Origin: a virus
Taxonomy: Duplodnaviria > Heunggongvirae > Uroviricota > Caudoviricetes
Virus record (IMG/VR): IMGVR_UViG_2541047432_000023
Reading direction: 5' to 3' (one strand)
DNA: 6,924 nt
The position numbers and the translations under genes are program-made. Of the stretch, positions 2,605 to 5,250 are shown piece after piece. How positions within the stretch are numbered: position 1 is the first letter of the stretch; the number at the start of each line of letters is the position of its first letter. Below the pieces are notes generated by a model. It was given only the letters and a program-made list of their open reading frames with translations. It was not told the origin of the DNA and made no database searches.

Positions 2605-2767
2605 GATTCCTCCTTGCTGCCAGTCGCAACCATTTTTTATCAACCAGGCTGGCGGTATATCCGAGCAGTGTTGGTATTTCGGATGGCTTCAGCTCAGGTT
2701 TACGCTTACGACGATTTGGTACTTTGTAGATGTGTCCGTTCATGACACGAATAAGCGGTGTAGCCAT
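2597..2767 (-). CDS. ninE: NinE family protein (56 aa)
   Basis: Hand translation of the minus strand gives [56 protein letters not shown]. It is below the ORF-track cutoff. Its ATG overlaps the ybcN stop (TAATG) and its stop overlaps the ybcO start. Matches the NinE of DLP12/lambda nin region as I recall it. Confidence 0.75.
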   Translation of the reverse strand: MATPLIRVMNGHIYKVPNRRKRKPELKPSEIPTLLGYTASLVDKKWLRLAARRNHG

Positions 2768-3222
2768 TACGCCTCCTGCTTGTCACGCAGCAGCTGGAAC
2801 TCGCAGCTCTGTGGAATAGTCAGGTGGCAGCCAATATTCATCGCCCAGGCTTCAACCTTACACAGGAAGACATACATCTCTCCGGTACCAAGATCGGAGG
2901 TATGGCGTAACGACTGGATAGTAGTGATTTCGCCGGTTACGACATCAACCAGGTCCTTGGTTTCATAACCGAGGTATGTGTGTTTGAGAGCATCTTTTAC
3001 CCATGCTGAAGTAGCGAACGATTTCCCCCTGCTGATGAGGTATTCACTGATTTCGCTGTACCACATGTGGCTGAGTGCATTCTGGGAAAGACTGCGTCTC
3101 TCGCGCCACGGTTTAAGCACCATGCGAAAGCATTTGCCGTCTTCCAGATAAGTCTGGATCTGCTGACCGACAGCGGTGAAGTTACCGCGATGTAATTTGA
3201 TGCCATCTTGTGGGAGGTTCAC
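2767..3222 (-). CDS. ybcN: YbcN / NinB-like protein (DNA base-flipping protein family)
   Basis: ORF track, 151 aa ([15 protein letters not shown]...[16 protein letters not shown]...). Matches my recollection of E. coli DLP12 YbcN. GTG start at 3222 preceded by GGAGGTG. Confidence 0.85.
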
Positions 3223-3312
3223 GCTTCACCTCCGCAGAGATCAAACGCTGGATGCAAGACATCGCAGGTGCATTTCTGCATCTGTGACAAGGTAAGGAGT
3301 TCAGATTGTGGT

Positions 3313-3336
3313 CGCATTTAAGTCCCCTTAAATGCG
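3313..3336. repeat. perfect 10-bp inverted repeat (CGCATTTAAG-tccc-CTTAAATGCG), stem-loop B
   Basis: Read directly from the sequence. Arms at 3313-3322 and 3327-3336 are exact reverse complements with a 4-nt loop. No flanking U-tract. Confidence 0.6.
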
Positions 3337-3341
3337 CAGAA

Positions 3342-3370
3342 GTCACCGGAGTTGTTCAAGCTCCGGTGAC
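3342..3370 (-). terminator. perfect 10-bp GC-rich inverted repeat (GTCACCGGAG-9 nt-CTCCGGTGAC), stem-loop A; candidate tR2-like terminator or operator
   Basis: Arms at 3342-3351 and 3361-3370 are exact reverse complements. On the minus-strand RNA the hairpin is followed by UUCUGCGCAUUU, only a partial U-tract. It lies between the island and ybcN, where lambda carries tR2 (position from memory). Confidence 0.3.
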
Positions 3371-3412
3371 ATTATTATGGAAGGTTGATACTAAAAAATC
3401 AAAAATTGAATA

Positions 3413-3604
3413 TCATTGGCGATAGTCTAGCTTGTGATATCCACAAGCTACTTCAATGAAGCGACGAGTAACATTTTGTGTCATCCATGTTTTTTCAGTT
3501 AAGTGCCACACCCAGTTCAAAATTTGCTGATGTGTTGAACATGTACTAAGCGGGATGTTGTATTCATAAGCAACATTGATTCCGCAAAATCGGTGTCGTG
3601 TCAT
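3413..3604 (-). CDS. hypothetical small protein (63 aa), doubtful
   Basis: ORF track only (MTRHRFCGINVAYEYNIPLSTCSTHQQILNWVWHLTEK...). No convincing Shine-Dalgarno upstream of the ATG at 3604 and no recognised family. It occupies the gap between ybcK and the tandem hairpins. Confidence 0.2.
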   Translation of the reverse strand: MTRHRFCGINVAYEYNIPLSTCSTHQQILNWVWHLTEKTWMTQNVTRRFIEVACGYHKLDYRQ

Positions 3605-3723
3605 GACCGATTCACGTTGACCTGCGCCCTGTTGAGTGCCTGGGGATATTCTTGCTCGATAGTTAATATCATAGTAGTTACTTTACTTTCATACCATAGC
3701 ACGGTTGAAAAAGTGATTATTAC

Positions 3724-5250
3724 TCAAAAATAAACCTCACCATCAACCATATATTTGAGAGCACTTATCGCCTGCTGGGCGGATATTACTTTCATTAAAG
3801 GATAGTGTTTAAAAACAATGCCATTCATAAAATAGATATCACAGGTTTTATTATCCGTATTAATTATGATTTTTTCGAATATTTTATAGGCAAGTGTACG
3901 GCATAACTCTCGTCCATTTTTACTGGTTAAGTCAATAGCATAAAAATCACTGAATGAATTTACACCTTTACTCTTCAAAGTTTTCAATGATACCAAAGCT
4001 CTTCGTAATTCCTTATCTAATAGTCTTATTTTCTCTGCTATAGCGGTAACTTCAGGCGCGACAGACAATGCAACGATTAAATTATTAATTTTCATCTGAA
4101 GCTCAATAATTTTTAACTCTAAAGTTTCATTAGCATCTTTCTTGTTTTCAACTGGTTGAATTTTGCTACAATTAAAAAGCAATTCATTAATGATATTATA
4201 ATCAACCAAATCTCTCTTTATTGATGGCCTGTCACATCGATGTAATCTTCTCATCGGACAAACATAATAGCCATGCAAACTTCCAGATACCGCATGAACA
4301 ATCATGGTATTACCACAAGCCTCACACTTCATAACTGTTCGAAGTAGATTTATTAGCATAGGATTCTTGCTACTATTGCTAATACCAAAAGGTGCCAACC
4401 GAATTTCCTGTACAGCGTAAAACAAATCATCTGATATGACTCTGGGATAATAGCCAGCGATTTCACTTATCCCTTTCCCTCTTGCACGATATGAAGGTAC
4501 GCATATACCTATCAGAGCTTTATTCGCTAATAATTTTTCAATTACAGAAGGCCCCCATGCACTTTCTTTTCCTGAGAAATTCTTTACAGCATGATCATTT
4601 AAATACTTGGCTATTGCATTCAATGAGCGCCTTTCCATCCTGAGTTTAAAAATTAGCTCAATAGTTTTCACCCTGTCGGGGTCTGGAACAAAAGCCGTTC
4701 TTTTGTCATCTAAGGAGAGCCATCTCGGACAAGACGCCGTCATAATCGTACCTGATTCCAGTGCATCCTGCCGTTTTTTCTTCCATGATAATTTAACCCG
4801 ACTTGACTTTATCTCGCTTTCTTCATTTGCCCTTTGTGCTATAAGTATGGCTTTTATTAATGAATATGGCTCATTCAAAGAGTCAATATTATAGACTGTA
4901 TTGTCGCAAAGAGTTATAACATCAATACCGTGATTCAAAATCAATTTCAGACGTTCAATCGCTTCACCGACTTTTTCTCTTGAAAGTCTGTCCAGACTTT
5001 CAACTAACAATGTAGTTCCTGGCAATATATAACCATGCTCTATAGCATCTAAAAATTCCGAAAAAGCTCCTGATTGTGCATGCTTTCCTTTGAATGCACT
5101 TAATCCTAAATCTTCATATGTTATGGTATCAAGATAATAATCACTATTTACCTTTAACCATTCAGCAATAAGTCTTCTCTGTCGGTTTAATGAGTCGCCA
5201 GACATCTGACCTGGTGATGAAAATCGCATATATGCTATGGCTTTTTTCAT
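3724..5250 (-). CDS. ybcK: large serine recombinase (resolvase/invertase catalytic domain + recombinase domain + zinc ribbon), YbcK-like
   Basis: ORF track, 508 aa. N-terminal serine-recombinase motifs: AIAYMRFSSPGQ (catalytic Ser region), SLNRQ and ESLDRLSRE. Cys-rich zinc ribbon further on (CEACGNTMIVHAVSGSLHGYYVCPMRRLHRCD). Coiled-coil-like C-terminal region. SD AGGTG 6 nt before the ATG at 5250. Strongly AT-rich. Resembles DLP12 YbcK as I recall it. Confidence 0.85.
   Translation of the reverse strand: MKKAIAYMRFSSPGQMSGDSLNRQRRLIAEWLKVNSDYYLDTITYEDLGLSAFKGKHAQSGAFSEFLDAIEHGYILPGTTLLVESLDRLSREKVGEAIERLKLILNHGIDVITLCDNTVYNIDSLNEPYSLIKAILIAQRANEESEIKSSRVKLSWKKKRQDALESGTIMTASCPRWLSLDDKRTAFVPDPDRVKTIELIFKLRMERRSLNAIAKYLNDHAVKNFSGKESAWGPSVIEKLLANKALIGICVPSYRARGKGISEIAGYYPRVISDDLFYAVQEIRLAPFGISNSSKNPMLINLLRTVMKCEACGNTMIVHAVSGSLHGYYVCPMRRLHRCDRPSIKRDLVDYNIINELLFNCSKIQPVENKKDANETLELKIIELQMKINNLIVALSVAPEVTAIAEKIRLLDKELRRALVSLKTLKSKGVNSFSDFYAIDLTSKNGRELCRTLAYKIFEKIIINTDNKTCDIYFMNGIVFKHYPLMKVISAQQAISALKYMVDGEVYF

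Follow-up and report, generated by a model that had tools for sequence, protein, structure and literature searches.

Conserved paired hairpins at the entry to the nin region of lambdoid prophages: a putative leader RNA ahead of ylcH and ybcN

Expression of Q commits a lambdoid prophage to lysis and, in Shiga toxin (Stx) phages, also leads to the release of toxin. In textbook accounts, early transcription is kept from Q by the nin terminators, which N overrides. In phage lambda, the terminator tR2 stands at the entry to this region, between ren and ninB, and consists of a hairpin (CAGGCCUGC...GCAGGCCUG) followed by a run of U (UUUUUAUUU). Here we analyze the same map position in a 6,924-nucleotide stretch of DNA from a virus of the Caudoviricetes (IMG/VR record IMGVR_UViG_2541047432_000023; the whole stretch is called the window below), where two perfect inverted repeats, IR1 and IR2, lie between an island of cargo genes and ybcN. 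Like tR2, IR2 is a stable GC-rich hairpin on the predicted transcript from the early promoter pR, and its homologue in Escherichia coli K-12 has an RNA 3′ end. Unlike tR2, with which it shares no sequence similarity, IR2 is followed by the tail UUCUGCGC and has a conserved loop, a promoter-like element just upstream and a start-codon hairpin, IR1, just downstream.

The repeats have been in GenBank annotations since 1996 and 2013. The phage 82 record X92588 (source, Mahdi et al. 1996) lists a putative −35 (TTGATT), a putative −10 (CATAAT) and a 29-bp repeat, nearly identical to IR2, as a “possible regulator-binding site,” and in phi80 a repeat identical to IR1 is annotated as “IR4.” Both records treat them as DNA repeats, either without function or with a guessed role in DNA binding, and hold nothing on covariation, the loop, the distribution or a link to an RNA 3′ end. 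In the literature that we searched, no description appears to exist of the covariation at the RNA level, the loop conservation, the wide occurrence of the module described below or its link to a published 3′ end. Elements of this general type are known already, combining a leader hairpin or attenuator with a start-codon hairpin and an upstream open reading frame (uORF). With moderate confidence, we read the two palindromes as conserved hairpins of a leader RNA, in which IR2 would be a promoter-proximal, attenuator-like element and insulator and IR1 would set the translation of the small gene ylcH and of the coupled ybcN or ninB.

All coordinates given here are window positions. All genes in this part of the window lie on the minus strand, on which IR2 precedes IR1 in the 5′-to-3′ direction (Table 1). 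An earlier note on this DNA, made from its letters alone, had reported two exact 10-bp palindromes 5 bp apart at this site and had judged such a pair improbable by chance. A repeat search confirmed both palindromes: the arms of IR1 (3313-3322 and 3327-3336; CGCATTTAAG and CTTAAATGCG) are complementary at 10 of 10 positions around a 4-nt spacer, those of IR2 (3342-3351 and 3361-3370; GTCACCGGAG and CTCCGGTGAC) are complementary at 10 of 10 positions around a 9-nt spacer, and the gap between the two repeats is 5 bp. In 2,000 dinucleotide-preserving shuffles of the window, perfect inverted repeats (arms ≥10 bp, loops of 3 to 12 nt) occurred at a mean of 0.10 per sequence, compared to three observed in the window (the third at 4980-5003). 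None of the 2,000 shuffles contained two non-overlapping repeats less than 30 bp apart, in agreement with the rough estimate of the note. Folding of the minus-strand RNA, which the note had proposed as a check, revealed exactly two hairpins, IR2 followed by IR1, for the 66 nt from 3374 to 3309 (−31.6 kcal/mol, z = −8.2, with 0 of 200 shuffles as stable). Folded alone, IR2 reached −18.3 kcal/mol (z = −6.7) and IR1 reached −13.3 kcal/mol (z = −4.7).

The two repeats are part of a conserved module of ∼185 bp, of which the hairpins make up the first third. We found this module in 2,935 of 5,426 complete E. coli genomes (54%), with one to three copies each, and also in prophages of Enterobacter, Citrobacter, Lelliottia, Trabulsiella, Scandinavium and Huaxiibacter, where it stands before other first genes. 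It precedes ybcN in DLP12, phage 82, 4A7, HK225 and phi80 and ninB in HK639 and KO-TP1, and a diverged form is present in Klebsiella phages. The module always stands ahead of ybcN, ninB or another first nin gene, and the cargo on its other side differs widely. When 62 distinct upstream contexts are compared, the information content stays near 0 as far as the point 43 nt ahead of the IR2 loop, where it rises to >1 bit at TTTGATT. This jump in conservation places the left edge of the module at the −35 hexamer (3402) and not at the palindromes. The earlier note had asked whether the palindromes are conserved with the backbone or with the island; our comparison revealed that they are conserved with the ybcN/nin backbone, beside at least 62 different upstream sequences.

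Both stems covary. Pairing was scored in a covariance-model alignment of 54 distinct homologues, which was fitted to the structure (an alignment of all variants by MAFFT only put the 10-bp and 11-bp stems out of register). In this alignment, 95.8% of the IR2 cells were paired, with double changes in 8 of 10 pairs, and 99.6% of the IR1 cells were paired, with double changes in 8 of 9 modelled pairs. For the two hairpins taken together, 97.6% of the cells held standard pairs compared to 79.8% in shuffles, none of 500 of which reached the observed value; slid controls were 25 to 56% paired, and double changes were present in 16 of the 19 pairs. Cells with G·U outnumbered those with A·C in both hairpins (64 versus 10) and in IR2 (55 versus 10), many of these cells being inherited copies of one change. 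This excess points to RNA of the gene strand, rather than duplex DNA or the antisense strand, as the molecule in which the pairs form.

The most conserved part of IR2 is its loop, whose positions hold 1.7 to 2.0 bits while the stems vary and whose core sequence stays the same from genus to genus. The invariant loop suggests that IR2 may have an additional, specific partner. In 65 of 71 variants, the span from −150 to +400 nt contained no stretch of at least 6 nt complementary to the loop that could serve as a cis partner or form a pseudoknot. A scan that required 4 contiguous pairs next to the loop found no extra copies of an IR2-type hairpin elsewhere in the window; the same scan applied to phi80 missed phi80's own bulged IR2 owing to that requirement and is hence uninformative there. 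An Rfam scan of 2900-3800 at E ≤ 10 gave a single match, engA RNA, at 14.9 bits versus a gathering score of 46 (E = 3.6), which is not meaningful. A 9-codon mini-ORF across IR2 (ATG TCA .. CGG TGA), present in the window, in K-12 and in the commonest variant, was set aside because its ATG is missing in 4A7, L075, phi80 and others. Lambda boxB has the sequence CCCUGAA[A/G]AA in its 5′ half and loop, which the loop region resembles as (A)GCUUGAACAA in the window and matches as GCCUGAACAA in most relatives. Identity with a nut site, in which a 5-bp boxB stem closes a GNRA-like pentaloop and boxA lies upstream, was rejected on structure and on phage diversity: the 3′ side cannot complete the boxB stem, the last base of the 9-nt loop varies, there is no boxA, and the nutL core of phi80 is unrelated. 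HK639, which also carries the module, uses RNA-based (put-type) antitermination instead of N. We treat the resemblance to boxB as coincidence or distant ancestry.

What does IR1 carry? The 32-codon open reading frame (ORF) ylcH, or orf33, starts inside 3313-3336; the earlier note had overlooked it, together with the promoter-like element between the island and the palindromes. Its ATG (3317-3315) lies inside the 3′ arm of IR1, and the loop GGGA with a flanking G is the annotated ribosome-binding site of orf33, such that the Shine-Dalgarno sequence is exposed in the loop. An AUG or GUG in the 3′ arm and a GGGA or GGGGA in the loop were present in all 54 distinct homologues, and at least six different stem sequences keep this loop and a start codon in the 3′ arm (Table 1). 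The MS2 replicase operator, in which an AUG lies in the stem, is similar in this respect; in IR1 the predicted sequestration is partial, with the Shine-Dalgarno sequence exposed.

At its other end, the stop codon of ylcH (TGA, 3221-3219) overlaps the start codon of ybcN (GTG, 3222-3220), as in other cases of uORF-coupled translation, where the uORF ends on the start codon of the next gene. ybcN encodes an Orf/NinB-family recombination mediator (Curtis et al. 2014, PMC4118853). An ORF of 29 to 34 codons whose stop overlaps the next start (GTGA or ATGA) was present in 60 of 63 distinct variants, regardless of the downstream gene, which implies that translation of the two is probably coupled. The Shine-Dalgarno sequence of ybcN is predicted to be paired in the minimum free energy (MFE) fold, and some covariation is seen in the corresponding RNAalifold helix. 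Since the ylcH stop overlaps the next start and the next Shine-Dalgarno sequence is predicted to be paired, IR1 may gate ybcN or ninB, by coupling, as well as ylcH itself. A third predicted hairpin, with a GAAA tetraloop, lies inside ylcH. In the Klebsiella phages, a single diverged lineage, three of its pairs are compensated (UGCA/UGCA to UGGC/GCCA and A-U to C-G), and the peptide changes from QMQKCTC to PMAKATG. This suggests that the ylcH region may be constrained as RNA as much as protein; ylcH matched no Pfam or NCBIfam family.

An RNA 3′ end has been mapped at the IR2 homologue of E. coli K-12. The Term-seq data for MG1655 of Adams et al. 2021 (PMC7815308) list 3′ ends on the + (sense) strand at 572,349 in LB at an optical density (OD) of 2.0 (stationary phase; 1,585 reads) and at 572,350 in M63 glucose (1,859 reads), and no 3′ end at IR2 in LB at an OD of 0.4, so that two of the three conditions were positive. 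These ends belong to the K-12 homologue, not to the strain of the window. Their context (...CUCCGGUGACUUCUG^C) places them 5 to 6 nt past the homologous IR2 stem and 19 nt short of ylcH. Across ∼10 kb of DLP12 (NC_000913.3 564,799-574,366), from argU to quuD/ybcQ, no other 3′ end is listed, on the antisense strand or elsewhere, nor is any Rho-termination region (PMC7815308). The transcript end that the earlier note had proposed to look for is therefore found in published data. With a transcript end on record and the palindromes shared among related prophages, neither of the grounds on which the note had been prepared to give up its idea holds, and the core of that idea, a functional signal at the transcript level at the boundary between the island and the nin region, survives.

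Taken alone, the K-12 3′ end fits termination and exonuclease stalling at a stable hairpin equally well; we infer termination rather than processing. The suggestion in the earlier note that the palindromes form an RNA processing site stands to the extent that processing could be the origin of the mapped 3′ end, which termination fits equally. In DLP12, ybcN-rusA requires an inserted promoter for adequate expression (PMC4118853), a statement that fits native-promoter transcripts that do not reach ybcN-rusA. Several candidates at or near this site were rejected. One hit of the terminator scan, on the + (antisense) strand, has a T-rich tail only because the −10 box is complementary to it; many variants of this hairpin would contain A·C mismatches, and no antisense 3′ end is recorded in K-12. 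The anti-small RNAs (AgvB, AsxR) of enterohemorrhagic E. coli and the Pas small RNAs are located downstream of pR′ or elsewhere, and the HusR (YnfL) site, upstream of rusA inside ybcO, is unrelated.

The left end of the module resembles a promoter. A promoter scan found TTGATT and CATAAT (3402-3374), with 9 of 12 positions matching the sigma-70 consensus and a spacing of 17 bp, within the range of 16 to 18 bp, at a conserved position; both hexamers are conserved at >1 bit across the 62 upstream contexts. In the Trabulsiella and Enterobacter variants L108 and L129, an extended −10 (TGTTATAAT) replaces CATAAT, and the Klebsiella phages have TTGCTT-17-GATAAT at the same position. The −10 is separated from the hairpin by 3 nt in most variants, 4 nt in L034 and L043 and 6 nt in the Klebsiella phages. 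With this spacing of 3 to 6 nt, transcription is predicted to begin at the base of IR2 or slightly within it, and in the window near 3367, inside the IR2 5′ arm. For K-12, the 3′ end is included in the 5′ untranslated region (UTR) table of Adams et al., the rule of which draws on differential RNA sequencing (dRNA-seq) and implies a transcription start site (TSS) >20 and ≤200 bp upstream of the 3′ end. These data suggest that the leader probably has an active promoter of its own.

A palindrome, TTGAT-N8-ATCAA, covers the −35 and part of the spacer. The spacer sequence AATCAA is conserved at >1.1 bits across the 62 contexts, and a sigma-70 spacer needs no such sequence; phi80 and HK225 carry a symmetric variant of the palindrome (TTGATA...TATCAA). 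This palindrome could be a candidate operator for a widely shared regulator. Its reading as an FNR site was rejected because the spacing is N8 and not the N4 of the FNR consensus.

The IR2 stem and loop with the mapped RNA end, together with the Shine-Dalgarno and AUG anatomy of IR1, lead us to read the pair as an attenuator-like leader hairpin plus a translation-initiation hairpin and not as two terminators. The leader would head the nin-region operon ylcH-ybcN-ninE-ybcO-rusA-ylcG-Q of many enterobacterial lambdoid prophages. Transcription would start at the sigma-70-type promoter, with IR2 at or within a few nucleotides of the 5′ end of the transcript. Transcripts from this promoter, and probably also unmodified read-through from the cargo, would mostly stop or be trimmed just past IR2, which would keep the nin genes and Q quiet in the lysogen, and antiterminated transcription from pR would pass. 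IR2, though no canonical intrinsic terminator, would thereby stand where lambda has tR2 and plausibly serve in its stead; the insulating part of this role we infer. IR1, whose stem pairs the AUG and whose loop displays the Shine-Dalgarno sequence, would limit or gate the translation of ylcH. The lambdoid pR′-tR′ unit, whose constitutive promoter yields a short terminated RNA except under antitermination, offers a parallel, namely, a promoter followed by a close transcript end before genes that must be silent in the lysogen. Unlike pR′-tR′, IR2 has no recognized Q-binding or sigma-dependent pause element, and the distance is ∼30 nt rather than ∼200.

Several of our results weigh against this explanation. 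IR2 has the stem of an intrinsic terminator (10 bp, −18.3 kcal/mol) and, in the K-12 homologue, the mapped 3′ end; as the earlier note had observed, neither hairpin has a strong U tract. The gene-strand tail UUCUGCGC has 3 U in 8, and the terminator predictor that the note had recommended made no call for IR2 on the gene strand. The tails are not U-rich in the L034 group (GGUUGCGC) or in the Klebsiella phages (ACGAUUAUCC), where the stem has shrunk to 5 bp, which excludes termination as the function conserved throughout. In K-12, the 3′ ends have low read numbers (∼1,600 to 1,900), are absent in exponential LB and can equally be read as exonuclease stops. For the K-12 TSS, the table rule implies no more than a presence within 200 bp of the 3′ end, and the Cappable-seq and SMRT-Cappable-seq supplements contain no TSS entry for the K-12 locus. 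Three outer pairs of IR2 covary although they would be outside an RNA started at ∼3367, and read-through transcripts must therefore matter too. The large covariation table depends on the structure-fitted alignment. In an unfitted control alignment of 17 close relatives, compensating double changes were confined to IR1 (three pairs), and IR2 varied on one side only, mostly from C-G to U·G. The evidence for compensation in IR2 thus comes from the diverged stems (phi80, L108, L128, L142, L147 and L034), each of which folds alone to the same hairpin; diverged variants folded singly yield IR2 and IR1 alike. Finally, a plain attenuator does not account for the invariant YUGARCA loop.

How do other explanations of the palindromes fare? 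The earlier note had offered a tR2-like terminator pair, and one could suppose that IR2, or both hairpins, are a true tR2-type intrinsic terminator against read-through from pR or the cargo, overridden by N, with the promoter-like element incidental. The map position of lambda tR2, the stable GC-rich stem and the K-12 RNA 3′ end 5 to 6 nt past it all agree with this, and a canonical terminator of its own within 157 nt was found in just 8 of 69 upstream contexts (for example, L094 and phage Chronis), so something must insulate the nin genes. The part of the earlier proposal that stands is this position of IR2 and its 3′ ends in K-12. Its second half does not, as IR1 is the translation-initiation hairpin of ylcH, with the ribosome-binding site and AUG inside it and coding sequence following. 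We regard a tR2-type terminator as doubtful, given the missing U tract and gene-strand call, the tails of the L034 group and the Klebsiella phages, and a 5-bp stem in those Klebsiella phages where two canonical terminators already lie shortly before the module. Moreover, the conserved block starts at the −35, the promoter elements are kept even where their sequence has been replaced, and an invariant loop would go unexplained. As separate observations on terminators in this neighborhood, a canonical intrinsic terminator precedes the module −35 by 10 bp in the Huaxiibacter prophage L094 (∼2650-2700), and Klebsiella phage Chronis (L157, 1000-1085) has two farther upstream, the nearer ending ∼20 bp before the −35-like TTGCTT.

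Alternatively, and in keeping with the RNA processing option of the earlier note, IR2 may mainly be a 5′-terminal stabilizing hairpin of the nin mRNA, comparable to the stem-loops of the ompA 5′ UTR, that wards off 5′-end-dependent attack by RNase E, in which case the mapped 3′ end would be a remnant of exonuclease decay. With the hairpin 3 to 6 nt after the −10, the RNA would have essentially no unpaired 5′ nucleotides, the short stem of the Klebsiella phages begins exactly at the predicted +1, and the 3′ ends are scarce, lie 5 to 6 nt past a stable stem and follow no U tract. Hairpins of the ompA type share with IR2 its location at the predicted 5′ end; they do not depend on a given loop sequence, but in IR2 conservation is highest in the loop. 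Outer stem pairs upstream of the predicted start covary too, and published work describes weak expression of the DLP12 operon in its native setting (PMC4118853). On balance we consider a purely stabilizing hairpin unlikely. Far less probable is a DNA operator, also named in the earlier note, by which IR2 would bind a dimeric regulator over the transcription start. A perfect palindrome straddling the predicted +1 and the X92588 annotation speak for it, but the half-sites differ among relatives (GTCACCGGAG, TCTGCCAGCGG, GTCGCAGTCGG, GTTGCGTCCGG, TGCTGTCGG and GTCAG), and the arms change freely yet stay complementary, largely by G·U pairing, which a DNA palindrome would show as A·C mismatches (the 64 versus 10 cells reported above). 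Furthermore, what is conserved is the asymmetric center, and the module occurs in phages of different immunity types. Least credible is the remaining proposal of the note, a recombination remnant marking the island boundary, which would make the palindromes a scar or target of cargo-island recombination, such as att-like sites of the serine recombinase YbcK. The palindromes do lie near the boundary between variable cargo and backbone, the island does contain a large serine recombinase gene, and IMG/VR variant L069 (∼1047-1075) has a recombination junction inside the IR2 5′ arm. Against this, the palindromes travel with the ybcN/nin backbone, the conservation boundary lies outside both of them, at the −35 ∼33 bp upstream of IR2, and the module borders at least 62 unrelated sequences, most of them without ybcK. 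The covariation reflects selection for pairing, and IR1 carries a start codon.

An extension of the leader-hairpin explanation can also be considered. The ∼185-nt leader could be an undescribed family of cis-regulatory RNA, a riboregulator read by a trans-acting factor at the IR2 loop; this we hold as a tentative possibility, on the doubtful side. It would comprise the YUGARCA hairpin, the Shine-Dalgarno/AUG hairpin, the GAAA-tetraloop hairpin in the uORF ylcH and the paired Shine-Dalgarno sequence of the next gene. At the IR2 loop, a protein or an RNA of host or phage origin would then decide the entry of polymerase or ribosomes into the nin genes and Q.

The order of genes around the palindromes is P, ren, emrE, ybcK, an unannotated 63-codon ORF, the palindromes, ylcH, ybcN, ninE, ybcO, rusA, ylcG and a phage-82-type Q; ybcK, the large serine recombinase gene, is within the cargo island. 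From position 1099 onward, the window is ∼99% identical to a prophage of E. coli O157:H7. At 1-1098, downstream of Q, the O157:H7 match ends and phage 434 and 2B8 match instead, which indicates a mosaic junction near 1099. Neither a 252-codon ORF at 205-963 nor the 63-codon ORF (3413-3604) matched a Pfam or NCBIfam family. Two further inverted repeats were observed. The perfect repeat at 4980-5003 (TTGAAAGTCTG / CAGACTTTCAA), inside ybcK, has 11-bp arms 2 nt apart and is equally improbable by chance. A perfect 9-bp repeat at 3428-3450 (TAGCTTGTG / CACAAGCTA; 5-nt loop) lies at the cargo end, ∼25 bp before the module −35, and overlaps the tail of the 63-codon ORF.

Table 1. Features of the leader region in window coordinates, and stem variants of its two hairpins (5′ arm / 3′ arm)
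Feature	Position	Strand	Sequence	Basis or remark
−35-like hexamer, left edge of module	3397..3402	-	TTGATT	Promoter scan, conservation, putative −35 of X92588
−10-like hexamer	3374..3379	-	CATAAT	Promoter scan, conservation, putative −10 of X92588
Palindrome over −35 and spacer	3385..3402	.	TTGAT-N8-ATCAA (consensus TTGATT-N6-AATCAA)	Conservation
IR2 RNA hairpin	3342..3370	-	GUCACCGGAG-CUUGAACAA-CUCCGGUGAC	Perfect 10-bp stem, fold, covariation
IR2 loop	3352..3360	-	Core UGAACA, family consensus YUGARCA	Near-invariant across alignments
Linker	3336..3341	-	UUCUGC	Matches K-12 mapped RNA 3′ ends (equivalents: window 3337, 3336)
IR1 RNA hairpin	3313..3336	-	CGCAUUUAAG-GGGA-CUUAAAUGCG	Perfect 10-bp stem, fold, covariation
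ylcH/orf33, small ORF, 32 codons	3219..3317	-		Annotated in K-12 (ylcH), phage 82 (orf33) and O157 (hypothetical protein)
Third predicted hairpin, inside ylcH	3263..3286	-	CACAGAUGCA-GAAA-UGCACCUGCG	RNAalifold consensus; UGCA-GAAA-UGCA extended by CAG/CUG
ybcN Shine-Dalgarno region	3213..3233	-	GGAGG (3233-3229)	Predicted pairing with ACCUCC after GTG or with upstream CCUC (MFE fold)
ybcN (Orf/NinB-family recombination mediator)	2767..3222	-		Close-homologue annotation, weak Pfam NinB match; first long gene after leader
IR2 stem, window			GUCACCGGAG / CUCCGGUGAC	
IR2 stem, commonest variant			GUCAUCGGAG / CUCCGGUGAC	Includes U·G pair
IR2 stem, CobraSix			GUCAUCGGAG / CUUCGAUGAC	
IR2 stem, phi80			UCUGCCAGcGG / CCCUGGCAGA	
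IR2 stem, L128			UCCGUCAGcGG / CCCUGACGGA	
IR2 stem, L108			GUCGCAGUCGG / CCGGUUGCGAC	
IR2 stem, L142			GUCGUAGUCGG / CCGAUUGCGAC	
IR2 stem, L147			GUUGCGUCCGG / CCGGGCGUGAC	
IR2 stem, L034			UGCUGUCGG / CCGGCGGUG	Four G·U pairs
IR2 stem, Klebsiella phages			GUCAG / CUGAC	5 bp
IR1 stem, window			CGCAUUUAAG / CUUAAAUGCG	
IR1 stem variant			GCGCUAAACG / CGUUUaUGCGC	
IR1 stem variant			GCGCUUUGAG / CUCAAAGUGC	
IR1 stem variant			GCAUAUGAUU / AAUUAUAUGC	
IR1 stem variant			GCACUUCGAUG / CAUUGAAGUGC	
IR1 stem variant			GCGCCAaGUG / CACaUGGCGC	

Many enterobacterial prophages, including those of O157:H7 and DLP12, thus carry a conserved promoter-like element and a structured uORF leader at the position of lambda tR2. 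If IR2 is only a stabilizing hairpin or a stop to RNA decay, the finding would be an ordinary one. If the leader does attenuate or gate, it would account for the silence of rusA and ybcN in DLP12 and would offer a handle on spontaneous induction, as a new and easily testable RNA element. The riboregulator, if it proves true, would give about half of E. coli genomes a second checkpoint on the lysis decision, one that does not depend on N.

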